A DNA stretch of 64,000 nt. Source: an uncultured Dehalococcoidia bacterium (GTDB lineage Bacteria; Chloroflexota; Dehalococcoidia; DSTF01; RBG-16-68-14). Shown here piece by piece: positions 7,528 through 53,755 of the stretch (the stretch's first letter is position 1; each line of letters begins with the position of its first letter). Made by a program: the position numbers and the translations under genes. The DNA lies in NCBI GenBank assembly GCA_964418365.1, contig CAYQLM010000003.1, positions 150 through 64,149 on the forward strand. Reading direction: 5' to 3'. The notes under the pieces were generated by a model that was not told the DNA's origin, did no database searches, and was given only the letters and a program-made list of their open reading frames with translations.

Positions 7528-9645
7528 TCACTGGCCAATGCTGTAGACCTCGTACGGCCCGATCTCCGTGACGAGTTTCGCCGACGGTAGCTGGCTCAGC
7601 GCCGCGTCTGCGTTGCTCGAGTATGTAGCGATGGCGTACCGCACGTGCGATTCGCTCAGCGCGCTCGCGAGCGCATCGCCGCTGAGCTGTCCTTGGTACA
7701 GCGCCATCACGGGCGGGCGCTCCCACTGCCCGATGATAGCCTGTGAAAAGACAGGCTGTACCTGCCACAAGACGCCCGGCAGATGCAGGCTCACGTCGTC
7801 GGGCGCGAGCACGACCGGGCCCTCCGGCGCGTGCGTGCGCAGGTAGTCGATCATCTGCCGCTCGTCCGGCTTGATGCGCCACTCGCGCGAGAGCAGCCGG
7901 TCCTTCCCTCCGAGGAAGATCGAGTGCTCCGTGCCCTTCACGATCGTGTCCGTGCTCGCCCACGTGTAGTACGTGCCGTGATCCGCCGGAAAGTACAGCT
8001 CCTGCACGAGCAGCGCGCCTGAGAGGAGCACGGCAGCCGCGGCTGCGGGCGCCAGAACGCGCAAAACTGACAGACTGCTTCGCCAACGGCGCGATGATCG
8101 CAGCAGGCGGTGGACGGCGTACGCCCAGACGATCGCGGCCGGCGCCATGTACGGCAGACGCGCGGTCAGCTCGGCGGACGCCAGCTTCGCAGCGACGGTG
8201 GAGAGCGGTGGGACGAAGAACCAGGGCAGCCAGCCGAGCATCGCGGCGAGCACGGCCTGATGGGCCGGCAGCCGCCGCGCCCGCCACCAGATCAGCGGCG
8301 CGAGCACGAGCGAGCCGATCATCAGCGGGTGCAAGATGAGGTGGAAGTTGCCCATGATCATCTTGCCGAGAAGGTGGACGATCTTGAACTCCTCGCGCCA
8401 GGTGAGCGTCGTGTCGAACAAGGCCGGCCACGAGGTGTTGAAGGCGTGCCAGACGATGAACTGGCCGAACGTGAACGCGGCGAGCGGCAGCCCGAGCGCT
8501 GCCGACCACAGCAGCGGCCGCCAGGAGCGCTTCGTCGCCGACCGGAACAGCGCGAGGGCAAGCAGCGTAACGCCGAGGAACAGCAGCGGCTGCGGGTGCA
8601 CGACGAAGAGCGCGAGGCAGACGAGAGCGAAGCAGGCCAGCGTGCTCGGCCGCGCGCGCCGGAAGAACTGCGCGACGAGGAGCAGTCCGATCGGGAACAG
8701 GATGTACGTCCCGACCATCTTGTCCTCGCTCATGCGAAACAGGAAGGTTGCGCCGAGCCCTTCGTCGTGCGACATGTCGATCAGCGCGTAGCCGAGCTGG
8801 ATCAGCACCGCCAGCAGCGCCACCGAGCGGCCGCGGAACAGACCCTTCGCGAGCGCATACGTCGCCATCAGCGCGAACACGATCAAGATCGGCGTGAGAT
8901 CGTTCATCACGACGTTCTCAGCGCTGATGCCCGCCGTGCGCGCAATGGCGGCCTGGAAGACGACCCAGGCGTTGATCTCCATCCTGGGGTAGGCCGCCTC
9001 GCCGACGCCGACCGGGTGGAGCGGATTGATGTGGCCGCTGTGCAAGTAGCTGTTGACGTAGGTCATGTAGCGCCAATCGTCGAAGTTGCGCGCGAGGCGA
9101 TCGCCGCCCCAGTACGGCGACGTCAGGACGCCGCCCGCCGCGACGGCGAACAGCAGCAGCAATATCAACGTCGATGCGTTCCAGCCGCGAACGGTGCGCG
9201 TCAACCAGACGCCGGCCGCCGGCGGCGCAACGAACGCCGAGCCCGCGGCGACCACCGCCGCCACCGCGACGTGAATTCGGATGCAGGCTTCGAGACTCGT
9301 GCCGAGCCAGAGCGCGAGCAGCCCCGACGGCGCGGCGATCGCGAGACCGAGCGGGAACGCGATCGCCAGCCGTTCGACGATGTCCGCGCGCGAACGCGGC
9401 AGCAGCGCATCGTGCAGGAGCAGCCCCGGCACGATGATCATGCTCAGGAAGACAAGGATGGCTGCAGGGTAGCCGGGGAGTCCGGAGAAGACGCGCGCCT
9501 CGAGCGCCAGCAGCTCCAGGGCCAGCACCACCGCCCCGCCGAGCGCTCCGCGCGCGAGCCGGAGCATCAGGGCGCTGTCCAGCGCGGCTCCGGCCGTCAG
9601 CTCGCCGGGGCGGGCGCGCGCTTGCTTTCGAAGGCTCTCCAGCAT
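7528..9645 (-). CDS. Polytopic membrane protein (~14 TM) with C-terminal soluble domain; possible GT-C-like glycosyltransferase
   Basis: Start set at MLESLRKQ (ATG complement 9643-9645), which has a GGGGGAG RBS 8 nt upstream. First loop after TM region: YWGGDRLARNFDDWRYMTY (acidic DD). Last gene of the minus operon 3723..9645. Confidence 0.45.
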   Translation of the reverse strand: MLESLRKQARARPGELTAGAALDSALMLRLARGALGGAVVLALELLALEARVFSGLPGYPAAILVFLSMIIVPGLLLHDALLPRSRADIVERLAIAFPLGLAIAAPSGLLALWLGTSLEACIRIHVAVAAVVAAGSAFVAPPAAGVWLTRTVRGWNASTLILLLLFAVAAGGVLTSPYWGGDRLARNFDDWRYMTYVNSYLHSGHINPLHPVGVGEAAYPRMEINAWVVFQAAIARTAGISAENVVMNDLTPILIVFALMATYALAKGLFRGRSVALLAVLIQLGYALIDMSHDEGLGATFLFRMSEDKMVGTYILFPIGLLLVAQFFRRARPSTLACFALVCLALFVVHPQPLLFLGVTLLALALFRSATKRSWRPLLWSAALGLPLAAFTFGQFIVWHAFNTSWPALFDTTLTWREEFKIVHLLGKMIMGNFHLILHPLMIGSLVLAPLIWWRARRLPAHQAVLAAMLGWLPWFFVPPLSTVAAKLASAELTARLPYMAPAAIVWAYAVHRLLRSSRRWRSSLSVLRVLAPAAAAAVLLSGALLVQELYFPADHGTYYTWASTDTIVKGTEHSIFLGGKDRLLSREWRIKPDERQMIDYLRTHAPEGPVVLAPDDVSLHLPGVLWQVQPVFSQAIIGQWERPPVMALYQGQLSGDALASALSESHVRYAIATYSSNADAALSQLPSAKLVTEIGPYEVYSIGQ

Positions 9646-41153: not shown

Positions 41154-43604
41154 TTGCAGCGAAGTGACACCGTGAGGGCAACGCCGGCCGTGTATGGCGG
41201 GCTGTTCTTCACGACACTCAGCACGCTGATGTACGAAGTTCTGCTCACGCGGATCTTCAGCGTGACGATGTGGTACCACTTCGCGTTCGTAGCAGTTTCG
41301 GTCGCGTTGTTCGGCATGACCGTCGGCGCGCTGATTATCCACCTCGTGCCGAGTCGTTTCACACAAGACGACACGCGCGACCGCCTCGCTCAAGCATCGT
41401 TGCTGTTCAGCGTCTCGATAGTGCTGAGCTTTCTCACGCAGTTGGTCATCCCGTTCGACGCCCACTGGTCGCTCACGGCGATCTACTCCACGTCGCTCAT
41501 CTACCTGGTCATCTCGGTGCCGTTCATCTTCAGCGGCGTTATCGTCGCACTGACGCTGACTCGTTTTCCAAACCAGGTGAGCCGGCTCTATGCGGCCGAT
41601 CTGATGGGTGCGGGCCTGGGGACGGTGACGCTAGTGTGGCTGATCAACGTCCTCGGCGATGGGCCGTCCACCGTCGTGGTCGTCGCGGCGCTGGCGGGCA
41701 TAGGTGCGTGCCTGTTCGCAACCGCAGCGGGCCGTTCACGCCTGCTCAGGTTCGCGGCCGCCGTCGCTGTACTCTGGGCGATCGGCGGCATCGGGAATGC
41801 CTTCTCCGCCCAGCATTACCATCCGATCCTACGCATTCGCTGGGCGAAGGGCGCGGAAGAAACAACAGCCCGCTACGAGCGGTGGAACGCGTTCTCGCGC
41901 ATTCGAGTAGTAGGCGACCCGAATACGGTCTCGCCACCCTTCGGATGGGGTTTCAGCCCGGCTCTGCCGGCCAACGCCCAGGCGCACCAGATGGGCCTGA
42001 ACATTGACGCAACGGCTGCGACGTTCTTGACTAAGTTCAGTGGCAACACGGCCGACGTCGACTACCTTCGCTATGACGTGGTCAACATTGCTCACTACCT
42101 GCGATCGAATGCGCGCGTGTTCGTGATTGGGGCCGGCGGGGGTCGCGATGTGCTCACTGCCCTCCTCTTTCAGCAGCAGTCGGTCACAGCGGTAGAGATT
42201 AACAACGCGATCTTGAAGGCCGTAAACAACAAGTATGGCGACTTCACCGGTCACCTTGATGAGCTGCCCAACGTCCACTTCGTGAACGACGAGGCGCGCA
42301 GCTATCTGGCCCGCTCCGACGACAAGTATGACATTATTCAGCTCTCGCTCATCGATACCTGGGCAGCGACAGCGGCGGGCGCTTTCTCCCTCTCAGAGAA
42401 CTCGCTCTACACCGTGGAGGCTTGGGACACGTTCCTCAATCGCTTGGCTCCAAACGGTGTGCTAAGCGTGTCGCGCTGGTACCACGTCGACAGGCCGTTG
42501 GAGTCGTACCGGGTCACGGCGCTGGCCGCCGCAGCACTGCGGCGCCGCGGCATCACGAATCCGCGGGACCATATCATCCTGATTCGAAATCCGGCGACGT
42601 CTTACTTGGGGCCGGGCATTGCCGTGAGTACGATCCTGGTGAGCCCGGAGCCATTCTCACAGGCCGACATCGATCGGGTCGAGCAGGTGGCTCAGGACCT
42701 GCGAGACGAGGTGGTCCTTGTACCGGCGCCGGCACCAAGCGATCCGGTGTTTGCTGCGATCGCGGACGCGAAAGACCCGAACTCCGTCCCCCTCGGCATT
42801 CCCGCCAATATCTCGGCGCCCACGGATGACCGGCCGTTCTTCTTCCAGATGATCCGCTTCCAGGACATCTTCAGCCGGTCGCTCTACGGCGTCGGGACCC
42901 AGTATCTGACGCAACCGGTGCTCGTGCTCTTCAGCCTCGCCATCGCCATGCTCGTTCTAACCAGTCTCTGCATTCTGCTGCCACTCGCCATCACGACCAG
43001 CCGGCAGGCATTGCACGGCATGGCGCCGTTCGTGGTCTTTTTCGGCGGGATCGGTCTGGGGTTCTTGCTGTTGGAGATCGCGCAATTGCAGCGGCTCATC
43101 ATCTTTCTCGGCCATCCTACGTATGCCCTCTCGGTCGTGCTGTTCTCGTTGTTGGTTTTCAGCGGTATTGGCAGCTTTGTAACGGAGCAGATCATCAGTC
43201 CGGGCCGACGGGCGTTCCTGTTACTGCCGTTTGTCGCACTCCTCGCGGTGCTGGTAGCGGCCGGGGTTGCGACGCCCCATATCACGCACAGCTTCGACGA
43301 CGCGACCACGCCAGTGCGCATCATTACCGCGGTAGCGCTTCTCGCGCCGATGGGTCTCCTCATGGGCATGCCGTTCCCCATCGGCATGACGCTGGCGTCC
43401 CGGCAGAAGGACGCGCCCACCGCGTTCTTCTGGGGGATCAACGGAGCAACCTCCGTGCTCGCCTCCGTGCTCGGCGTTGCCATCGCGCTGCAATGGGGCA
43501 TCTCGATTGCATTTTGGGTGGGCGTCGGCTGGTATGCCGTCGCAGCGCTAGCCCTGGGAAGCATCGTCAGCAGAGGACGTTCAACGGCGGGTACCTATGT
43601 ATGA
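41154..43604 (+). CDS. Fused polytopic membrane protein with central spermidine-synthase-like (PABS, class I MTase fold) domain
   Basis: 816 aa. N-terminal ~7 TM helices. Central VFVIGAGGGRDVLTALLF...VTAVEINNAILKA...YDIIQLSLIDTW (GxGxG and acidic residues of aminopropyltransferases). C-terminal ~6 TM helices. Confidence 0.6.
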   Translation: MQRSDTVRATPAVYGGLFFTTLSTLMYEVLLTRIFSVTMWYHFAFVAVSVALFGMTVGALIIHLVPSRFTQDDTRDRLAQASLLFSVSIVLSFLTQLVIPFDAHWSLTAIYSTSLIYLVISVPFIFSGVIVALTLTRFPNQVSRLYAADLMGAGLGTVTLVWLINVLGDGPSTVVVVAALAGIGACLFATAAGRSRLLRFAAAVAVLWAIGGIGNAFSAQHYHPILRIRWAKGAEETTARYERWNAFSRIRVVGDPNTVSPPFGWGFSPALPANAQAHQMGLNIDATAATFLTKFSGNTADVDYLRYDVVNIAHYLRSNARVFVIGAGGGRDVLTALLFQQQSVTAVEINNAILKAVNNKYGDFTGHLDELPNVHFVNDEARSYLARSDDKYDIIQLSLIDTWAATAAGAFSLSENSLYTVEAWDTFLNRLAPNGVLSVSRWYHVDRPLESYRVTALAAAALRRRGITNPRDHIILIRNPATSYLGPGIAVSTILVSPEPFSQADIDRVEQVAQDLRDEVVLVPAPAPSDPVFAAIADAKDPNSVPLGIPANISAPTDDRPFFFQMIRFQDIFSRSLYGVGTQYLTQPVLVLFSLAIAMLVLTSLCILLPLAITTSRQALHGMAPFVVFFGGIGLGFLLLEIAQLQRLIIFLGHPTYALSVVLFSLLVFSGIGSFVTEQIISPGRRAFLLLPFVALLAVLVAAGVATPHITHSFDDATTPVRIITAVALLAPMGLLMGMPFPIGMTLASRQKDAPTAFFWGINGATSVLASVLGVAIALQWGISIAFWVGVGWYAVAALALGSIVSRGRSTAGTYV

Positions 43605-43914: not shown

Positions 43915-45093
43915 CTACTGAGTGACCTTCACCGTTCCTCCCATGCCTGGGTGAACGATGCACACATAGTTGTACGTCCCGGCCTTCGTGAACGTCACCT
44001 TGTACTGGTAGATCGGATCTCCGAACGACACGATGACGCCAGAACTCAGGAACCCAGTGCCATCCCAGTTGCCCGCATCGATGAGCGGGGGTGCGCTCGG
44101 ATCGGTCGGCTGGCCCGGGCTCTTGGATGGTGCACCCGCCTTCTCGTTGGCGTGATACGCACCGTCAGCACCCTTCACGAGCAGGCTCTTGGCATCATCC
44201 GGGGCGTTGAAGCTGATCGTGTGCACACCATCGACACTCCACGTCACCGACTCGCCCTCTTTGATGTCGATCTCCTTCGGACCGAACTCGTTCACTCCCG
44301 CTTCCTGCACGTCCGGCGACGAGGCTCCAGCCTGCGCCTTGTCCGCAGTGAGCGAGGTGAGCTGATCGGCCGTCGGCTTGAGCTTCGTCACCATCTGGCT
44401 GAACTCGTCATCGCCCTTTGCCTTCTGCTCGGAAGGCTTCGGCACGCTCGTGCCCTTGGCGACAACGGTGATGGTGCCGCTCATGCCTGGTCGGTGAAGC
44501 AGACAGTAGTAATGGTACGTGCCGGGCTTGATATTCGACGCCAGCTTCACGGAGAAGACGGCAGCTTCGGGCAAGAATCCGCTGTTGTAGTAAGTCTGCG
44601 TGCCGTCGAAGTCCATCTGCGTTTGCTGGGGCTTCGCGCACGCCGATCCGTCACTGGGCGCGTCGCCGCTCGCGAGGTAGCAGGGCTGTCCCGCCGCCTG
44701 GATGACATCGCCAGGGCCTTCTGGGAATAACGACGGCAGCTTTGCGGTCGCCGTGTTGTACTGGTCGGCGTACTGTTCCGGCGGCCCCTGCTGGCAGTCC
44801 GGGTCGGCGAGGCCGCCGTTGGGGCATGCCTGCGAGATGACGTTGAACACGTCATCAACATCCCGGCCCAGCGTGACCGTATGCGGCTCCCCGCTGAAGA
44901 TGCTGGTGAAGTCAACGGTATCCCCTGGATGGACTTGCACGTCGTTTGGGAAATATGCCAAGAACGCGCCGATGAACTCGCCCGATCTGCCGTCGACCTG
45001 AACAGAGAACGTCTTCGCGCCGCCTCCGCTGCTTTTGCAACCGGCGCCCAGTAGCGCCGCTGCGGCTAGCAAAATGAGTACACCCTTCCACAT
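43915..45093 (-). CDS. Lipoprotein with two cupredoxin (plastocyanin/azurin-like) blue-copper domains
   Basis: 392 aa. Signal peptide plus lipobox LLGAGC. Two copies of the type-1 copper motif C-x2-H-x2-M (YHYYCLLHRPGMSGTITV; YNYVCIVHPGMGGTVKV) with upstream His candidates. Confidence 0.7.
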   Translation of the reverse strand: MWKGVLILLAAAALLGAGCKSSGGGAKTFSVQVDGRSGEFIGAFLAYFPNDVQVHPGDTVDFTSIFSGEPHTVTLGRDVDDVFNVISQACPNGGLADPDCQQGPPEQYADQYNTATAKLPSLFPEGPGDVIQAAGQPCYLASGDAPSDGSACAKPQQTQMDFDGTQTYYNSGFLPEAAVFSVKLASNIKPGTYHYYCLLHRPGMSGTITVVAKGTSVPKPSEQKAKGDDEFSQMVTKLKPTADQLTSLTADKAQAGASSPDVQEAGVNEFGPKEIDIKEGESVTWSVDGVHTISFNAPDDAKSLLVKGADGAYHANEKAGAPSKSPGQPTDPSAPPLIDAGNWDGTGFLSSGVIVSFGDPIYQYKVTFTKAGTYNYVCIVHPGMGGTVKVTQ

Positions 45094-45278: not shown

Positions 45279-45356
45279 GCCCCGGTAGCTCAGATTGGAC
45301 AGAGCAACGGTTTCCTAAACCGTGGGTCGCAGGTTCGAATCCTGCCCGGGGTACCA
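45279..45356 (+). tRNA. tRNA-Arg (anticodon CCT)
   Basis: Cloverleaf folded by hand: acceptor gccccgg/ccggggt (G1-U wobble), D-arm gctc-agattggac-agagc, anticodon arm acggt-ttCCTaa-accgt, T-arm gcagg-ttcgaat-cctgc, discriminator A, encoded CCA. Confidence 0.85.
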
Positions 45357-45522
45357 CGTTTCGTATACAGAATCCACCGATGGCCGCGTGACAACGCGCG
45401 CCTTCAGACGAATTGACAGCAACGCGAACGTAGACGCTACCAAGTCGCGGGCTAGTTGTAGATCAGCGGACGACGCGACCGAATGCTGTTGAGCGCTAAC
45501 CGCTGAGCAGCGCGTCTAACGC

Positions 45523-45960
45523 TTGCTCGGCGTGCCGTTGCCGGGTTGGTGTCTCAGTCAGTGGATCGTGCGAAGCACGATCCCGCCTGTTACCCGAAAT
45601 ACGCTGTACTTCGTCTACCTACCGCCCGACATCAGCGCCGTCGCCGCCGATGGGACGCGTTCTTGTAGAAAGTTCTGCGGCTATCACGGCAACGTCAAAG
45701 GGACTCGCGTTCTCCACGCCGTCGAACCCCACGTGAGCTGCCAAGGATGTAGCTTCGGCAACGGTGTCGTGGACTCCCTGACCAAGGTGAGCAGCCACGA
45801 GCCGTGTGCGGCGATCACAGACCCAGAGGGTGACGGCTGGTACGACGATGTCTCCTGGGACAAGATCGGCGATATCTGCAACAACGAGGTTACTCGGTTG
45901 GGACCCTACACGATCCAGGAGGAGTGGTCGGACTCCCGTCAGCGCTGCGTAATCTCATAG
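45523..45960 (+). CDS. Hypothetical protein, probably a 5'-truncated gene fragment adjacent to the tRNA
   Basis: 145 aa. Cys-rich region FCGYHGN...VSCQGC...EPCAAITDPEGDGWYDD. No signal peptide or convincing N-terminus. The family call (possibly PHI-1-like) is weak. Confidence 0.3.
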   Translation: MLGVPLPGWCLSQWIVRSTIPPVTRNTLYFVYLPPDISAVAADGTRSCRKFCGYHGNVKGTRVLHAVEPHVSCQGCSFGNGVVDSLTKVSSHEPCAAITDPEGDGWYDDVSWDKIGDICNNEVTRLGPYTIQEEWSDSRQRCVIS

Positions 45961-46019
45961 ATCACGGCGGGCCTTCTCAGCATACCCTGCGACGTTGCAC
46001 CATGACCCGCTAGTGTGGC

Positions 46020-49000
46020 CTACGCCTTCGGGTTGACAGGCAACTGCGGCGGCCAGGGGTTTTGGCACATGCTGGTCAGCCGTCCGAACACGAACTGCAG
46101 GTCGTTGATGTTGATTTCGCCGTCACCCGCCATCTGCCCGGACGGCATCAGGTCGTAGCGCGTGCCGTAGAACAGGCTCCCTATCGTCGACGCCCAGCGG
46201 AACGCCACCTGCTGCGCGTCCATCACGTCCACGATGCAGTCCCCGGTCACATCGCCCTCCAGGTAGCGGATCGTCACGTCGCCGTCGTCGCAGGAGAAGA
46301 TCGGGATCGGGTGCCCCTGCAGGTCCGATAGCTGGCACCCCTGGTTCAGGATCTGCACGGCGATGCCGTTGTCCTGGTTGGGCAGGATCTGTGAGTACAA
46401 CTCCGGCTGCGGTCGCACGACGATGTCCGCCAGATGGCGCCCCTCAGGTGTGTGCGTATCCGGGAAGACGTTCTTACCCGGCGAGACGCAGCCGATCCGC
46501 GCGATCCCCTTCAGTGTGGAGTTCGTCGCGTCCTGGATCGTGCAGACCATCGAGCTAGCCGCAGGCCCCGGCACCAGCTGCACGCAGACGAGCTTCTCGT
46601 CGTACCGCACCTCGAACTCGAACGCGCCCAGGCGCTCCAGCTGCGCCGGGTCCTTGGGGTCCTGCGATGTGATGGGCGCGCTGAGCTGGTGCGTGAAGAG
46701 CGCCACGTTCGTGCCGTCTTGGCAACGGACCGGCGCCAGCTTCTCGCCTTGTCTCGTGAGGAAGAGGTTCTGCAGCGCCGGCAGCTTGGTAAGCTCGCGC
46801 ACGGGCGTAAACGTCACCGCCCCCAGCGTCCCACGCGCACTCTTAGCCTGATCCACCAGCGCGACGTTGTTCTTGGACAGGTAGTGGTCGCCGGGTTCAG
46901 CCTGGCCCGCACCGCTGGTCGTGAAGATCGTCAGAGCGTTCATGTTCTTTACTATCAGATCGGGAACGCCGTCGGACGGCACGCTGGTATCGACGTACAC
47001 GTACAAGAACACGTCGAAAAAGCTGGTGCATGGTGTTGCCGGGGCGCACTCGAGAATGCCCGGCTGGGCATTCGGCGGTTGCTCCTCGATGTAGCCGATG
47101 GAGCGTTCAAAGAGGCTCTCGGTGACCCACATGGGGAAGCTGTCAGCGCCGAACTGCGCGGTGCCGGAGAGGAACATCTGCACGATCTCCGTTTCCACAT
47201 CGTCCTGGCCCTTGTGGAGCGTCAACGAAGATGGTCCGATGCCGTCGCGGTCGCCGGCGGCGGCGTCGCGCAAGATGCACGTGTGGCCGAACAGCTCGGC
47301 GCTGCCCGCGCCGAGCGCTGGGTCGGTCAAGCTGAGGTCGATGGTCGCGATGGAGCTGCCCAGATCGTCGAGGAGCTTCCCCGCCGCCGGAGCCGGGCAG
47401 GGGGTGCCCGGCGGTGGCAGAGGCGTGTCAGCTGGTTTCGATATGGTGGTCACCCATGCGCTGCGACCATGCGTCGCCGCAACCAGGGTGTTGTCCTGCG
47501 TGTTGAGCAGCAAGTCCTGCACGACCACGTTGGGCAGCGACCCCTTGTTGAAGTTGTCCCACGTTGCGCCGCCGTCGGTCGAACGGAAGACGCCGCCATC
47601 CGTGCCGGCGTAGAGCGTAGGAGGGCTGGTCCTGGGATCGATGGCGAGCGCGTTGACCGGGATGTTCGGCAGATCCCCGCTGATGTCCGCCCAGGCGCCG
47701 CCGGCGTTGGCGGTGTGAAAGACGTGCCCGCTGCCGCCGTATGGGTCGAACCCGCTCAGCGTCACGTAGGCGCTGGTAGCATCGTTGGGGTCGACGGCGA
47801 TGTCGCTAACGTATCGATAGGGCAGCCCGTTGGGCTGCGTCTCGGTCCAGGTGTTGCCGCCGTCAGTCGTGACGTCGAGGCCGCCGTAGGAACCCACGTA
47901 AATCACGTTGCTGCTGCTCGGCGCCGGGCCAATGGCGGAGATCGCGTCGTAGCCGAGGGGCGGGCTGATCGGCTCCCAAGATAGCGCTCCGTCCGTTGTC
48001 CGGTAGAGGCGGCTCGCGCCCGCATAGAGCGTGTCCGGGTTCGAAGGGCTCATCACCAGGGGCGCGATGAAGAGACGCAGCTCGTTGAAGGGGATGCCGT
48101 TCATGGCCGGGTACCAGTTGGCGCCGCCGTCGTAGGACTTCTCGATTTGGAGGTATTGGAATGTGTGATAGATAAGCTGTGGGTTGTCCGGGTTCACGGC
48201 CGCGTAGCCGCCATCGCCACCGGCCACCTGCTTCCACACGGGAGAGCCGGTGTAGCGCAGGGTGCCGTTGTCTTGCGTGCCGCCAAGGAACATGGCGGGA
48301 GATGTTACGCTGCCCGCCGTGCCCGGATAGAACTGCGTGATGGCCAGGTTTCCGTTCAGGTTTGCGAACGTGGTTCCGCTCCTGCGCCAGATGCCGCCGT
48401 CGTTGCCTATGTACAGGCGCCCCTGGCTGTCGAACGCCAGGGCGTGCTGGTCCACATGGATCGCGCCGGGGAAAAAGCCGATGAGGTCCGCGAAGTGCGC
48501 GCCGCCGTCGGTGGACTTGAACAGGTCGATCCCCCCTGCGTACACCGTGTTGGCGTCGGCCGGGTCTACGATCAGGGCGTTGTTGTACCAACACTGGCTG
48601 ACAGTGATGAATAACGGAAAGGGATAGCGGTCGCAGTAGTGCGAGTCGTTTCCCAGGTTCGTCCAGTTCGCGCCGCCGTCCGTGGTCCGGTAGACGCCGT
48701 TCAGTCCACCGCCCTCCGCCAGCGCGGCATACACGGTTTGCGGCTGGCTGGGCGCGATGGCCAAGATGACCACGTCTGAATACCCTGGCGGTTGGAGCAC
48801 CAGGTTCCAGGTATCGCCGCCGTCGATGCTCTTGTATACGCCGCCTGAAGAGTAGCCCGCGTCGACGCCGGCGTACAACGTCGCCGGTGCGGAGGGGTCG
48901 AGCTCGATGTCCCAGGCAGGCCCAGCGAGCTTGTTCGTCCAGGTGACGCCGCCATCGATGGACTTGTAGATTCCAGCTCCGCATGATCCAGGGCCACCGA

Positions 49001-49712
49001 AGGCGCCGCCGCTGGCCAGATAGAGGGTTGAGGGCGCGGTCGGATCGATAGCGATCCTGCCCACGCGGCACCCCGCGAAGGTATTCGAGGCCAGGAGCGT
49101 CCAGTTGTCGCCGCCGTCGGTGCTCTTGAGGATGCCTGCCCCGCCGTAGGAGGTAAGGCTGGCGTAGTCATTTTCGCCGGTGCCGGCGTAGACGATATCG
49201 GCGTTGGTCGGGTCGATGGCGAGCGCGCCCATCGAGAGTGACGGCTGCCGGTCGGTGAGGGGTGTCCAGCTCCCACCGCCATCCGTGGTCTTCCAGACCC
49301 CGCCTCCGGCCGCACCGATGTAGATGACGTTATCGTCGACCGGCGATACCGCGATGTCTTGGATGCGACCGGAGGCGGCACCCGTTGGGGTGAGGAGCCG
49401 GACGGCATCGATGGGGGCGGGCCCCAGCGGCGTCCAGGGCGGGCCGTCGACCGGCGAACCTGCCAGCGCGCCCTGCTGCTGGGCTTGGAGCAGGCCCTGC
49501 GCCTGGATGCCGGCGGGGATCTGCGTGCCAGGAAAGGCGCGCTGACGGTAAAACCAGTCGTCCTGGGCCCGGTGGTCGTGAATGAACGCGTCCGGCGGAG
49601 GCGATCCGGCGGACTGAGCCGTGCCCGGCTCCTGCGCCTGCCCTGTATCGTTCGATAGTGGAGCGCCCAAAAGTAGCGCTGCGCCGATCGCCGCAGCGAA
49701 GACAAGGAGCAC
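46020..49712 (-). CDS. Very large secreted BNR/Asp-box repeat protein (sortilin/GH74-like beta-propellers) with C-terminal dockerin-like module
   Basis: 1230 aa. N-terminal signal peptide MLLVFAAAIGAALLLGAPLS. At least 10 S-x-D-G-G-x-(T/N)-W Asp-box motifs (TDGGGSWTPL, STDGGDNWTL, SIDGGVTWTN, TTDGGANWTN, STDGGATWDN...). C-terminal paired Ca-binding-loop-like segments GDVTGDCIVDVMDAQQV and AGDGEININDLQFVFGRL. Confidence 0.7.
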   Translation of the reverse strand: MLLVFAAAIGAALLLGAPLSNDTGQAQEPGTAQSAGSPPPDAFIHDHRAQDDWFYRQRAFPGTQIPAGIQAQGLLQAQQQGALAGSPVDGPPWTPLGPAPIDAVRLLTPTGAASGRIQDIAVSPVDDNVIYIGAAGGGVWKTTDGGGSWTPLTDRQPSLSMGALAIDPTNADIVYAGTGENDYASLTSYGGAGILKSTDGGDNWTLLASNTFAGCRVGRIAIDPTAPSTLYLASGGAFGGPGSCGAGIYKSIDGGVTWTNKLAGPAWDIELDPSAPATLYAGVDAGYSSGGVYKSIDGGDTWNLVLQPPGYSDVVILAIAPSQPQTVYAALAEGGGLNGVYRTTDGGANWTNLGNDSHYCDRYPFPLFITVSQCWYNNALIVDPADANTVYAGGIDLFKSTDGGAHFADLIGFFPGAIHVDQHALAFDSQGRLYIGNDGGIWRRSGTTFANLNGNLAITQFYPGTAGSVTSPAMFLGGTQDNGTLRYTGSPVWKQVAGGDGGYAAVNPDNPQLIYHTFQYLQIEKSYDGGANWYPAMNGIPFNELRLFIAPLVMSPSNPDTLYAGASRLYRTTDGALSWEPISPPLGYDAISAIGPAPSSSNVIYVGSYGGLDVTTDGGNTWTETQPNGLPYRYVSDIAVDPNDATSAYVTLSGFDPYGGSGHVFHTANAGGAWADISGDLPNIPVNALAIDPRTSPPTLYAGTDGGVFRSTDGGATWDNFNKGSLPNVVVQDLLLNTQDNTLVAATHGRSAWVTTISKPADTPLPPPGTPCPAPAAGKLLDDLGSSIATIDLSLTDPALGAGSAELFGHTCILRDAAAGDRDGIGPSSLTLHKGQDDVETEIVQMFLSGTAQFGADSFPMWVTESLFERSIGYIEEQPPNAQPGILECAPATPCTSFFDVFLYVYVDTSVPSDGVPDLIVKNMNALTIFTTSGAGQAEPGDHYLSKNNVALVDQAKSARGTLGAVTFTPVRELTKLPALQNLFLTRQGEKLAPVRCQDGTNVALFTHQLSAPITSQDPKDPAQLERLGAFEFEVRYDEKLVCVQLVPGPAASSMVCTIQDATNSTLKGIARIGCVSPGKNVFPDTHTPEGRHLADIVVRPQPELYSQILPNQDNGIAVQILNQGCQLSDLQGHPIPIFSCDDGDVTIRYLEGDVTGDCIVDVMDAQQVAFRWASTIGSLFYGTRYDLMPSGQMAGDGEININDLQFVFGRLTSMCQNPWPPQLPVNPKA

Positions 49713-50001
49713 CCGCCAGGATAAGGCTGAGAACGTAGCTTCCTCTGGGTGTCAGCGCGCGGACGGGGTCGCCGCTTGAGGCACCACCAGTCGGGGGCAA
49801 GTATACAGCGTTGGCGAACGTTGTCAACGTGGCCGGCAGGGCACCAACCGCGCAAAAGAGCTTCGACACAAACGGCGCCGTGTTCTCGTAGTGCGCCCCC
49901 GCCGCACGCGCTCTGACCCTCGGGGGAGCCATGCCCTCAGCACCGGCCCCGGCTGCGCTTGACGCGGGCGCTCGAACGTGTCCGGCTCTGGAACGAAACG
50001 G

Positions 50002-50029
50002 TTGACGGACCCGGGCGCGGTGCTATACT
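50002..50029 (+). promoter_or_regulatory. Sigma70-like promoter TTGACG-N16-TATACT upstream of the lipoprotein hydrolase gene
   Basis: Hexamers and 16-bp spacing read directly. It lies ~135 nt upstream of the ATG at 50165. Confidence 0.4.
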
Positions 50030-50164
50030 GGCCAGCACCCAGCAGTAGGCGAGCCCGCCAAGCCATGTCCTGTAACGTTGGCGCCCCTGCGGGAGGGGAA
50101 CAGAGGTGGCATGGCCTCGAGAAGCGCTCGGCAAGACCTCCCTTCAAACGGCAATCGACAGCGC

Positions 50165-52099
50165 ATGAAGACCGGACTGTGCACAGTGCTCTTTGGAGTC
50201 ACGATGCTGGCTACCGCGTGCGGCGGTGGCTCCACGGGTCCGAAGGCCACATCGACGCCGGTGGCCACGCCCACGCCACGCCCGATACCGACGCCCGTGG
50301 CGTACGCGCCGGAGCCCGCGGGCAACGTCACGCGCGGCGACCCAGCGTTCGAGGCGCTATCCGGCGCCAAGGCGTACTACGGTCAACTCGGCGGGAGCAT
50401 CTATCAGATCGAAATGCCCGACCACTGGAACGGCCGCCTGGTGCTCTACGTGCATGGTTCTCGCTTGTTGGAGCCGACTCTCTGGGTGGACACGCCCGGC
50501 ATCCGTAACTATCTCATCCGCAACGGCTTCGCCTGGGGCGCGTCCAGCTTCAGCAACAACATACCGAACCTATCGGGTCTGACCGCGGACGAGACGGCGG
50601 CGCTTTGGGACCGCTTCGTGCAGCAATTCGGGCGGCCGCAGCGCACCTATGTTACCGGCCAGTCGATGGGCGGAGGCGGCGCCGCCATCTCCGCCGAACG
50701 CTATCCCGACCGCTACGACGGCGCCCTGGGACTCTGCGGCATCGCGGGCTTCAGCTCTCACGCCGGCAGGTGGGGCGACTTCTTCGTCGCCGGAGCGTTC
50801 GCGGCGGGTGTCACGCAAGCCGACTTCGATTCACCCGAATCCGGCCAGCTCATCGATACTCGCATCCTCCCGGCACTGCGGGATGCAACGGTGCGCGAAC
50901 GGTTCGAGGACATCGTGATCGACCTGACGGGTGGCCCGCGCCCGTTCGATCGCGAGGGATTTCTCGCGGACAACAACCTGTGGAGCAGCACTCAGGGGAT
51001 CATGGGAGCCGGTCTGTTCGACAACGGGGAAGCCGTCTACCGTCTAGGTCCACTCAGTAGCATATCCAGCCAAGAATTCAATGCCGCCGCCGTCCGAGTG
51101 AGCCCTGGGCCGTTGCTCGCCGTCCTCGGCCAGGGTAACGACACCACCGGCGACATCCAGATACCCTTGCTCACGCTGCATACTACAGGCGACATGCGGG
51201 TTCCGATGACTGAGCCACAGCTCCTGCAACGCAGAGTGGTAGCGGCGGGCAAGGGCGATCGTCTGGTGCAGCGCGCCGTGCAGGACGCACGACATTGTGG
51301 CGTCACCAACGCCGAGTGGGAGCGCGGCCTGGAGGACCTCATCTCTTGGGTGGAGGAAGGAAGGAAGCCTGACGGCGAAGATCTCTTGGGCGACCTGAGC
51401 GACGCCGGCCGCGAGTTCACGCTCGCGGCGCGGTTCGGCTCGCCCGAGGCCGATGAAGCGCCCGGAGCGGACGAGCGCGTCACCGTGCGCGGCACGATCA
51501 CACTCGACGGCGACCCGATGGCCGGCGAGGTCTACATCGTCGCGGTCAAGGACGGGCTGCGACGCTACTGCAGCATGAGCCGCGTGGGCGCGCGTGCTGA
51601 CGGTCGCTATGAAGTGACCGCCGCGAGCGACGGCGAAGCGCGCGGTTGCGGGCAGCCGGGAGCGCAGCTCTACGTCGACGCGTACGTGCCCAGTCGCGGC
51701 AGATCGTACTGGTCGCGGGAGCTACTCGACTGGCCGGAAAACGGGGAGGAGTTGACGTTCGACGCAACGCTCACCGAACCTGGCGCGTATCGTCCGAACA
51801 CGCTGTTCCGAGGCGAGGTCATCGATGCCTCCGGCGAATCGTTCCCCGTTGGCACAGTGATCGAGGCGTACATCGGCGACACGCTCTGCGGCGTCACCTC
51901 GCTATCGCCGACGGTGATGGCACTAGGCGACCCGCAGACCTACTACCTGGCGGTCGTCGGGCCGGAGTCGAAGTCCGGCTGCGCGGGAGGTCAGCCCGTG
52001 ACGTTCCGCGTGAACGGACAGCGCGTCGCGCAGACGGGCGTCAACGACTTCGACGGGCGCTTCCAAGGCAGGCACCTCCTGGACCTCGTAGCACAATAA
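50165..52099 (+). CDS. Secreted lipoprotein alpha/beta-hydrolase (serine hydrolase, GxSxG) with C-terminal beta-rich domain
   Basis: Start at MKTGLCTVLFGVTMLATACGG (lipobox LATAC). Pro/Thr-rich linker, nucleophile elbow YVTGQSMGGGGAA, Asp/His candidates downstream. Confidence 0.65.
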   Translation: MKTGLCTVLFGVTMLATACGGGSTGPKATSTPVATPTPRPIPTPVAYAPEPAGNVTRGDPAFEALSGAKAYYGQLGGSIYQIEMPDHWNGRLVLYVHGSRLLEPTLWVDTPGIRNYLIRNGFAWGASSFSNNIPNLSGLTADETAALWDRFVQQFGRPQRTYVTGQSMGGGGAAISAERYPDRYDGALGLCGIAGFSSHAGRWGDFFVAGAFAAGVTQADFDSPESGQLIDTRILPALRDATVRERFEDIVIDLTGGPRPFDREGFLADNNLWSSTQGIMGAGLFDNGEAVYRLGPLSSISSQEFNAAAVRVSPGPLLAVLGQGNDTTGDIQIPLLTLHTTGDMRVPMTEPQLLQRRVVAAGKGDRLVQRAVQDARHCGVTNAEWERGLEDLISWVEEGRKPDGEDLLGDLSDAGREFTLAARFGSPEADEAPGADERVTVRGTITLDGDPMAGEVYIVAVKDGLRRYCSMSRVGARADGRYEVTAASDGEARGCGQPGAQLYVDAYVPSRGRSYWSRELLDWPENGEELTFDATLTEPGAYRPNTLFRGEVIDASGESFPVGTVIEAYIGDTLCGVTSLSPTVMALGDPQTYYLAVVGPESKSGCAGGQPVTFRVNGQRVAQTGVNDFDGRFQGRHLLDLVAQ

Positions 52100-52501
52100 G
52101 CACCGCGAGAACACCATACGTTGCCACGTCACACCGCTAATGTGACACGGTCGATAGAACCTCCTCCGGGATCGCGTGATGAACCCGTCGGAACCAAGCA
52201 GCAGCGCGCGCGCCGACGAAGCGTATGACCGGAGACCCCTTCAGCGTGTTGGCTGGAGGGCGTTCTCCTGCCGCGATCATCGAGCTGGTGTTCGGCCTCT
52301 TCCTCATCTCCGGTATGGGGTTCCTCTACCTGCGCCGGCGAGTCCTCGGTTGGGCCATCCTCCCGCTTCGACTCGAACGCAGGTGGGTTCAGCATCTGTT
52401 TCAGCATGGGGCTGGCCGTGGCAGACGCCGATGGTGGCAACTCGAAAGCGCTCGACCTTGCCACCCTGGACGACCTCTGCCAGCAGGAGCCCCTTCCCGA
52501 G

Positions 52502-52544
52502 ACTTTCGGTGGCGTCGCACGTTCGAATCCTGACGGGGGTACCA
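52502..52544 (+). repeat. Degenerate direct repeat of the 3' end of tRNA-Arg (T-arm, acceptor and CCA)
   Basis: ggcgtcgcacgttcgaatcctgacgggggtacca versus the tRNA's gggtcgcaggttcgaatcctgcccggggtacca, 29/33 identical. It cannot fold into a full tRNA (T-stem mispaired, no anticodon arm). Confidence 0.45.
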
Positions 52545-52579
52545 TCTCCCTTCCCGCTCTCCTGCTACAATCGCCTGCG

Positions 52580-53755
<1,176 letters not shown>

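Follow-up and report, generated by a model that had tools for sequence, protein, structure and literature searches.

The window analyzed here, a 64,000-nucleotide stretch of a contig from an uncultured Dehalococcoidia bacterium, contains an intact tRNA-Arg(CCT) gene and a degenerate copy of its 3' end 7188 nt (~7.2 kb) downstream, both on the + strand (Table 1). The tRNA gene encodes its own CCA (3' end …GGGGTACCA), and we presume that it is an integration target, on the attL side. On its left, a cupredoxin gene closes a conserved block (ECH, epimerase, RmlD, glycosyltransferases). The cupredoxin gene with ECH alongside is also present in relatives L002–L004, L094 and L096, and the sugar-nucleotide and glycosyltransferase genes upstream of it recur in L094 and L096; in more distant relatives, tRNA-Glu(TTC) adjoins the cupredoxin gene instead. 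ARAGORN and Rfam found no tmRNA in the window.

Table 1. Features of the tRNA-Arg(CCT) locus, in window coordinates
Feature	Coordinates	Strand	Basis or description
Cupredoxin/plastocyanin-like lipoprotein gene	43915..45093	-	Pfam Copper-bind
tRNA-Arg(CCT), intact	45279..45356	+	ARAGORN; Rfam tRNA 66.6 bits
Repeat copy 1	45324..45356	+	tRNA positions 46–78: variable loop, T arm, 3' acceptor strand, discriminator base, CCA
Spacer, 196 nt	45357..45552		Without homology to anything tested
Phi_1/EXORDIUM-like pseudogene, 5'-truncated	45553..45960	+	phmmer, Pfam, tblastn
Gene for 1230-aa secreted protein	46020..49712	-	GH74-like BNR/Sortilin-Vps10 beta-propeller region (Pfam) and weak dockerin-like C-terminus
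Tannase/DUF6351-like alpha/beta hydrolase gene	50165..52099	+	Pfam
Spacer, 412 nt	52100..52511		Between hydrolase gene and fragment; no recognizable gene remnant
Repeat copy 2, degenerate tRNA-Arg 3' fragment, attR-like	52512..52544	+	29/33 (88%)
BT_1020-like beta-propeller gene	52580..53755	+	Right-hand flank; start set by homologs

The first-pass annotation had reported a direct 33-nt match, identical at 29 positions, between 52512–52544 and the tRNA 3' end, and our alignment agrees: the second copy, GCGTCGCACGTTCGAATCCTGACGGGGGTACCA, aligns without gaps and in direct orientation to 45324–45356. Identity between the two sites is 10/45 over tRNA positions 1–45 and 29/33 over positions 46–78; in the 60 nt beyond the CCA it is 15/60. 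The match stops precisely at the CCA, beyond which the sequence from 52545 onward reads TCTCCCTTCCCGCTC. These sharp edges and the end at the CCA favor a recombination junction over uniform decay of a whole tRNA. We also considered the fragment as a decayed whole tRNA and rejected this, there being no Rfam tRNA match at E ≤ 10 and only random identity over positions 1–45. The mismatches in the second copy (G47C, G54C, C67A and C69G) are all transversions, two of which disrupt T-stem pairs; a 12-nt core across the T loop, GTTCGAATCCTG, is exact in both copies. The match proved to be far beyond chance when set against the shuffled background that the annotation had called for: the second-best 33-mer in the window, on either strand, scored 20/33, the best score in 300 first-order Markov simulations of the 64 kb window was 24/33, and a 25-mer search allowing up to three mismatches found these two copies only, with no matches in 100 dinucleotide shuffles. 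The window has no further downstream copies of the tRNA end of the kind that tandem islands would leave. The fragment is intergenic, with 35 nt separating it from the corrected start of the following gene, and is identical in the same-strain contigs L005–L007.

Between the two copies, the tRNA-proximal sequence begins with a spacer in which tblastn found no remnant of a Phi_1 N-terminus and Pfam gave no match in the one frame tested (that of the Phi_1 ORF, read back to 45358). The annotation had read 45523–45960 as a truncated gene, and this holds: tblastn homology begins at 45553, and phmmer places the pseudogene over residues ~120–260 of Phi_1-like homologs 250–600 aa long, so that of the domain just the C-terminal half is represented. 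Pfam Phi_1 matches the N-terminal part of the homologs, which is missing from 45553–45960, and the conserved SHELxEAITDP motif is altered to SHEPCAAITDP. Because the N-terminal half of the full ~250-aa domain is absent, we regard this segment as a truncated Phi_1/EXORDIUM-like relic.

The two large genes that follow lie on opposite strands, as the annotation had noted, and together fill nearly all of the interval. Comparison of the giant protein with the PDB gave GH74 xyloglucanase-type matches (E ~ 1e-10). The dockerin label given to it earlier is weaker than was stated: Dockerin_1 scored E = 0.011 and 16.4 bits, below the cut-off of 22.9. The start of the hydrolase gene is uncertain (50078, 50111, 50165 or 50204), and its earlier designation as a lipoprotein is likewise weaker than was stated; judging by eye from MKTGLCTVLFGVTMLATAC, the protein is probably a lipoprotein. 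Its homologs with 50–65% identity are named as Dehalococcoidia or Chloroflexi; the family is common in Dehalococcoidia, where its members lie in differing, ordinary chromosomal contexts.

At the right-hand end, a six-frame Pfam search of the spacer region (E ≤ 1) returned a sole match, to Gram_pos_anchor at E = 0.27, and 52100–52511 had no Rfam tRNA match at E ≤ 10. The BT_1020-like gene just beyond the interval also encodes a BNR-type propeller (Pfam). Public gene calls begin this gene at 52406, so that the called gene overlaps the tRNA fragment; homologs place its start near 52580, and our analysis corrects the public call accordingly.

We searched the interval for signs of a mobile element. 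Consistent with the earlier annotation, no ORF in the interval has a Pfam integrase domain. A search for integrase remnants was also negative (Pfam, E ≤ 1) in 10 translated frames (six of 52100–52579, three of 49713–50164 and the Phi_1 ORF frame back to 45358), nine of them drawn from two of four non-coding stretches. Comparison of the interval with phages and plasmids by blastn gave nothing relevant. Searches of viral contigs, made with the tRNA 3' end and with each half of the fragment, yielded unrelated phage tRNA genes only; one of these, a tRNA-Arg(TCT), contains the identical 33 nt, and the fragment therefore need not come from the CCT gene. The GC and codon-bias profiles proposed as a check on the island showed no anomaly: GC, synonymous codon likelihood and tetranucleotide correlation all lie inside the range of the window, as does the codon usage of both large genes, and there is no island signal.

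We next compared the locus with its relatives. The whole locus is shared by near-identical strains only. L002–L004, at the 76% level, have only the left flank in common with it: the left block is syntenic, the tRNA is 100% identical although the cupredoxin is just 76% identical, and blastn similarity stops exactly at 45356, the tRNA 3' end. L002 and L003, members of a sister species, are 99.8% identical to each other until 253 bp past the same tRNA and then carry different DNA that includes a transposase and restriction-modification genes, with an IS1595 transposase and a methyltransferase in one and an Eco29kI-like endonuclease in the other. Gene order is poorly conserved around every gene here. 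In L097, a relative ~90% identical, the 3' end of the giant gene is 89.9% identical and is followed by MOSC, clpX, clpP and tig; homology terminates at the stop codon of the giant gene, and the tRNA and the Phi_1 fragment are absent there.

We found no empty-site allele, in which the tRNA would run straight into TCTCCCTTCCC..., and none of L005–L007 is a contig variant that lacks the interval. No compared relative beyond the near-identical strains keeps the right-hand flank, and this loss of right-hand synteny accounts for the failure to find an empty-site relative. Neither flank was shared by 80 GTDB loci, from a search of genome contigs with the BT_1020 alignment, or by L090 and L091. The 21 closest of the 80 loci, the only ones scanned, had no tRNA within 10 kb and, apart from scattered ECH-like matches, none of nine other window genes tested. 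For the cupredoxin protein, an exact look-up was negative and a genome-contig search gave no relatives; the exact 78-nt tRNA, searched against metagenome contigs, gave no locus beyond those already compared. The contexts of the closest BT_1020, hydrolase and cupredoxin homologs showed neither an empty site nor a second occupied site.

Partial tRNA genes beside a cognate tRNA are normally due to integration (PMC9897764, PMC4383910). The arrangement resembles the tDNA islands catalogued by Islander (Hudson, Lau & Williams 2015, PMC4383910) in having an intact tRNA at one end and, at the other, a displaced 3' fragment of the same tDNA that is beyond chance, downstream, on the same strand and in the same orientation, with a kilobase-scale interval and an identity block that reaches the exact tRNA 3' end. 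By contrast, Islander requires a tyrosine recombinase gene inside the interval, and there is none here; moreover, this fragment is degenerate (88%), the composition is not anomalous, the contents look mosaic and lineage-typical, and there is no documented empty site. An empty site is the customary confirmation rather than one of the Islander filters, and atypical composition supports an island without defining it. In the same bacterial class, Dehalococcoides has tandem ssrA islands between direct repeats, some without integration modules (McMurdie et al. 2011, PMC3146451). As here, these lie downstream of a small-RNA gene between 3'-end direct repeats, with an insertion point in the T-loop region, and those without an integration module may be fixed. 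They differ from the present locus in their target (a tmRNA gene rather than tRNA-Arg), in their repeat (20 bp rather than 33), in their cargo of reductive dehalogenase genes, and in the serine recombinase DsiB with its six-gene module, which is wholly missing here; the combination of ssrA target, 20-bp repeat and DsiB module next to attL that defines an ssrA island is thus not found. There is also a likeness to the partial tRNA genes of van der Gulik et al. (2023, PMC9897764), in which a fragment of T arm and acceptor lies near a full-length cognate tRNA. Such fragments are there ascribed mainly to mobile-element integration, with later rearrangements also recorded; unlike the present case, those examples still flank recognizable viral or ICE DNA of 9–23 kb.

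We favor, with about even confidence, the view that the repeat was left as a scar when an element integrated site-specifically long ago, that the DNA downstream of the tRNA is a plasticity zone, and that the sequence between the copies was later reshuffled. In an ancestor, site-specific recombination would have joined the tRNA gene with a circular element bearing a copy of the tRNA T arm and acceptor end; one junction would then have carried a restored, intact tRNA, and the partial copy would have ended up at the other. A crossover within the T loop would be compatible with the exact 12-nt core, and the four flanking mismatches may reflect attP/attB heterology or later decay. The work of Williams in 2002 is reportedly the source for the sublocations of tDNA integration. 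The element would since have lost its recombinase and become non-functional, a deletion or rearrangement at the tRNA-proximal end would have left the 5'-truncated Phi_1-like pseudogene, and the DNA between the repeats would today be a reshuffled mosaic of lineage-typical genes. Against the scar we count the lack of an integrase, an empty site, a relative with the same right-hand flank, a compositional signal or phage or plasmid similarity, the housekeeping context of the giant gene in L097 with a breakpoint at its stop codon and not at the tRNA, the phage tRNA-Arg(TCT) with the same 33 nt, and the all-transversion mismatches, which are odd for simple neutral decay.

The first-pass annotation had gone further, reading the whole of 45357–52511 as one relic island with the giant BNR protein and the hydrolase as its cargo and with the mobility genes alone lost. 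The repeat evidence is the same for this reading, the two enzymes occupy almost all of the interval, and the differing neighborhood of the giant gene in L097 is expected of transferred DNA. We nevertheless consider it unlikely, given that the codon usage of both genes is normal, that the tetranucleotide signature is no outlier, that the hydrolase homologs are typical of Dehalococcoidia/Chloroflexi and lie in ordinary chromosomal contexts, and that the gene just outside the supposed island likewise encodes a BNR-type propeller. The L097 breakpoint, with the Phi_1 fragment and the tRNA absent, means that more than one history underlies the interval, and the giant gene abutting MOSC, clpX, clpP and tig there argues that the 7.2 kb are a mosaic rather than one coherent element. 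Thus, of the relic-island proposal, the repeat, its geometry and sharp edges, the truncated pseudogene, the stop of synteny at the tRNA and the strain-to-strain variation beyond the same tRNA in the sister species stand, whereas composition, phage or plasmid likeness and the coherence of the 7.2 kb do not. The further suggestion that such a scar explains the position of the secreted enzymes is not established, and the genes now between the copies are at most candidates for cargo of the element.

Alternatively, there may have been no integration, the fragment being the rest of a second resident tRNA, such as another tRNA-Arg isoacceptor with an equal 3' half, that lost its 5' 45 nt by ordinary deletion or rearrangement in a region prone to rearranging. 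This would fit with the absence of an integrase, with the poor conservation of gene order around every gene here, with the tRNA-Glu(TTC) beside the cupredoxin gene in more distant relatives, and with the fact that a tRNA-Arg(TCT) can have an identical 3' 33 nt. We find it doubtful, however: none of the 21 closest BT_1020-homolog loci has a tRNA within 10 kb, its placement in direct orientation 7 kb from the cognate tRNA would be coincidental for a second resident tRNA but is expected of an att scar, and the mismatches are non-compensatory, which makes the fragment unlike a different functional T arm.

It is very unlikely that the interval is a cis-mobilizable element, lacking its own recombinase but with usable att sites, that is moved or excised in trans by the integrase of a related element. 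The T-loop core is intact in both copies, and direct-repeat-bounded Dehalococcoides islands without integration modules are discussed in PMC3146451, but four arm mismatches, the truncated pseudogene at the left end, the lack of a contig variant without the interval among L005–L007 and the lack of a known cognate integrase all argue against it. A version in which a T-loop-targeting integrase from elsewhere in the community moves the interval, and so spreads large genes for secreted glycoside-hydrolase-like proteins among uncultured Dehalococcoidia, has a slighter chance still. Chance resemblance, for which the commonness of T-loop motifs is all that speaks, is refuted by the statistics, no simulated or shuffled sequence having come near 29/33, and we give it practically no weight.

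Returning to the scar of an old integration, which we prefer, the feature is of an ordinary, known kind and opens no new mechanism, and its practical value is small. It does carry a caution, in that the repeat alone is insufficient to call the two secreted enzymes horizontally acquired cargo. In this Dehalococcoidia lineage a conserved gene block ends at the tRNA and a plasticity zone begins there, and we conclude that tRNA-Arg(CCT) is likely to be an integration site and a rearrangement boundary in these uncultured bacteria.

The tRNA-Arg(CCT) gene was the only tRNA called in the window by ARAGORN, and was also found by Rfam (66.6 bits). As the first-pass annotation had described, its 3' end has a degenerate copy downstream: this fragment is identical at 29 of 33 positions, without gaps and in the same orientation, to 45324–45356 (tRNA positions 46–78), a stretch comprising the variable loop, T arm, 3' acceptor-stem strand, discriminator base and encoded CCA. 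With both strands of the window searched, the runner-up 33-mer reached 20/33, and 300 simulated 64-kb sequences (first-order Markov) gave at most 24/33. A 25-mer search allowing up to three mismatches found two copies only in the window and none in 100 dinucleotide shuffles, and a blastn-short search with the whole tRNA gave no further match of note in the window. The match is significant against the shuffled background, and the repeat is beyond chance. The longest exact shared block, GTTCGAATCCTG, spans the T loop. All four mismatches in the fragment (G47C, G54C, C67A and C69G) are transversions, four events being too few to interpret; two of them disrupt T-stem pairs with no compensating change, indicating that the fragment is non-functional.

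Identity between the tRNA and the fragment region is 10/45 over tRNA positions 1–45, 29/33 over positions 46–78 and 15/60 over the 60 nt past the CCA. Gapped local alignment of the 5' 45 nt of the tRNA with the 130 nt that precede the fragment scored no higher than shuffles, and 52300–52700 had no Rfam tRNA match, even at E ≤ 10. The sharp edges, the lack of 5' similarity and the lack of an Rfam match therefore indicate a 3' fragment with a junction. Public gene calls begin the BT_1020-like gene at 52406 (52406–53755), placing the fragment within a 449-aa ORF. Homologs are mostly 360–400 aa long (n = 28), and most begin with a conserved M-x-R-x-L-R-R-L-R that aligns to the ATG at 52580, indicating that the call starts 58 codons too early and that the fragment falls in intergenic DNA, with 35 nt separating it from the actual start codon. 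The spacer ahead of the fragment also contains a putative 135-aa ORF in which RRR comes after a hydrophobic segment (AAIIELVFGLFLISGMGFLYLRRR).

The fragment would be the residue of site-specific integration into the tRNA gene. With nested versions summed, we consider an integration scar probable, because the fragment is a 3' piece that shares the strand of the tRNA, lies kilobases downstream of it and stops exactly at the tRNA 3' end, with sharp edges, a geometry that is hard to obtain otherwise. Published work attributes fragments of this kind to integration (PMC4383910, PMC9897764), and tandem islands in the same bacterial class are bounded by ssrA 3'-end repeats, some lacking integration genes (PMC3146451). 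The main alternative without integration, that a second resident tRNA gene was truncated from its 5' end, seems unlikely to us; in its favor, another isoacceptor can carry this 3' end, since a tRNA-Arg(TCT) on a viral contig (L008, 11289–11365) has the same last 33 nt as the tRNA-Arg(CCT) of the window. An evenly decayed whole tRNA gene is ruled out by the same edges, Rfam search and upstream comparison. Of the six tRNA genes on L008, five cluster within ~1.1 kb.

Features at and around the tRNA-Arg(CCT) gene (window coordinates)
Feature	Coordinates	Strand	Basis or remark
816-aa ORF	41154–43604		weak spermine-synthase-like match only
Cupredoxin gene	43915–45093	-	last gene of conserved left block
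tRNA-Arg(CCT)	45279–45356	+	ARAGORN, Rfam
Phi_1/EXORDIUM-like domain, C-terminal half	45553–45960		protein search, Pfam, tblastn
1230-aa protein gene	46020–49712	-	BNR/Sortilin-Vps10 repeats
Tannase/DUF6351-like alpha/beta hydrolase gene	50165–52099	+	Pfam; lipoprotein-like leader
135-aa ORF (putative)	52176–52583	+	single Pfam match, Gram_pos_anchor, E = 0.27
tRNA 3'-end fragment	52512–52544	+	29/33 match
BT_1020-like gene	52580–53755		revised start

The interval between tRNA and fragment holds, as first annotated, a truncated gene at its start and two large genes on opposite strands. When searched against 1.84 billion representative proteins, the Phi_1-like ORF aligned with residues ~120–260 of homologs of 250–600 aa. 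Pfam Phi_1 falls on the N-terminal part of these homologs, of which tblastn found no trace from the tRNA to 45553 or past the tRNA. The ORF is a 5'-truncated pseudogene, in which a conserved SHELxEAITDP motif is also changed. The 1230-aa protein has weak GH74-type matches among PDB structures and a dockerin-like C-terminus that scores under threshold. In agreement with the earlier reading, no interval ORF contains an integrase domain; nor did Pfam at E ≤ 1 detect one in the frames tested of two non-coding stretches (six of 52100–52579, three of 49713–50164) or in the Phi_1 ORF frame back to 45358, where the only match was to Gram_pos_anchor (E = 0.27). The window shows 23 differences from the 99.88%-identical contig L005, 12 of which lie within 65 nt of the hydrolase gene, at 51684–51748 (SRELLDWPENGEE versus SQHLIDWPKDGTE). 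This cluster resembles a small recombination tract or a mosaic of strains; a Logan contig (L006) begins at 51681.

The GC and codon-bias profiles proposed as a check on the island did not bear it out: there is no GC step across the interval, and the synonymous-codon likelihoods of its three genes (-1.07, -0.92 and -1.02) are no more extreme than those of the remaining genes in the window. Ranked against windows of equal size, the tetranucleotide profile of the interval falls at the 14th percentile and is therefore not an outlier, and comparison with 50,697 phage and 72,556 plasmid records gave no meaningful similarity. The hydrolase family is common in Dehalococcoidia and Chloroflexi, where it occurs in ordinary contexts, such as beside Tad pilus or transketolase genes. 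Among the relatives, contig L097 is the most informative: over the last 335 nt of the 1230-aa protein gene it has 89.9% identity to the window, and homology stops at the stop codon; beyond lie genes for MOSC, an RRM protein, a cold-shock protein, clpX, clpP and tig, with neither a tRNA nor the Phi_1 fragment. The 7.2-kb interval thus does not act as a single unit, and at least the junction between Phi_1 fragment and 1230-aa protein gene has a separate history.

The first-pass annotation had proposed a relic island stripped of mobility genes, with the secreted enzymes as cargo. This reading is partly supported: repeat geometry favors it, whereas the L097 breakpoint and the native-looking composition and families count against it. 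The feature departs from the Islander definition on the integrase criterion. That the present genes are cargo is much less certain than the scar, because composition and families look native, a pseudogene scar forms the left end, and the neighbors of one gene differ in L097. The feature is a degenerate case of a well-known kind.

On the right-hand flank, BT_1020-like homologs occur in 80 representative genomes, seven of them 71–83% identical. None of nine other window genes tested was found at these loci, bar scattered ECH-like matches (29–35% identity), and the 21 closest loci have no tRNA inside 10 kb. The two closest metagenomic homologs have P-II/Amt/TatA genes on one side and a pst operon on the other. 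This BT_1020/BNR_2-like beta-propeller family is highly conserved (~100 invariant columns in 29 sequences), with 50–83% identity across Chloroflexota, Myxococcota, Binatia, Planctomycetota, Spirochaetes, Nitrospirota and Asgard archaea (Hel-, Hermod- and Promethearchaeota MAGs). No gene neighborhood is conserved around it, its solved structures are designed propellers only, and tandem copies occur in some genomes (L041, L058 and L065). A Dehalococcoidia MAG contig (L022) on which ARAGORN calls no tRNA carries, ~2.6 kb downstream of the BT_1020 homolog, a tRNA-like piece made up of T arm and acceptor (9370–9402; GCGTCGCGGGTTCGAGTCCCGCCAGGGGCCCCA). Its T stem is intact, and it may represent a further att-type scar.

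Three near-identical contigs (L005–L007, 99.9–100%) share the arrangement and the fragment, and are thus uninformative on an empty site. In more distant relatives, gene order is conserved to the left of the tRNA, the cupredoxin gene adjoining ECH at 62–76% identity; in L094 and L096 (62%), ECH is followed by sugar-nucleotide and glycosyltransferase genes resembling those of the window. Between ECH and cupredoxin, the 816-aa ORF occupies a position that is empty in L002–L004 and L096 and holds a 1447-aa multicopper-oxidase-like gene in L094, a second variable slot within an otherwise conserved block. In L002–L004, an identical tRNA adjoins a 76%-identical cupredoxin gene, and nucleotide homology to the window ends exactly at 45356. 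L002 and L003, from one sister species, are 99.8% identical through cupredoxin, tRNA and 253 bp past it, and then continue into unrelated DNA: one carries Eco29kI-like GIY-YIG endonuclease, MarR, HD and Na/Ca-exchanger genes, the other has genes for an N6/N4 methyltransferase and an IS1595 transposase, and neither contains the tRNA-end repeat. L094 (9789–9864) and L096 (3358–3433) have a tRNA-Glu(TTC) beside cupredoxin that points towards it, whereas the tRNA-Arg(CCT) of the window points away, and L001 (cupredoxin 73%) has HicB and two HepT/MNT toxin-antitoxin pairs in place of a tRNA. Since gene order is kept on the left and lost on the right, the tRNA marks where a conserved block ends and a plasticity zone begins.
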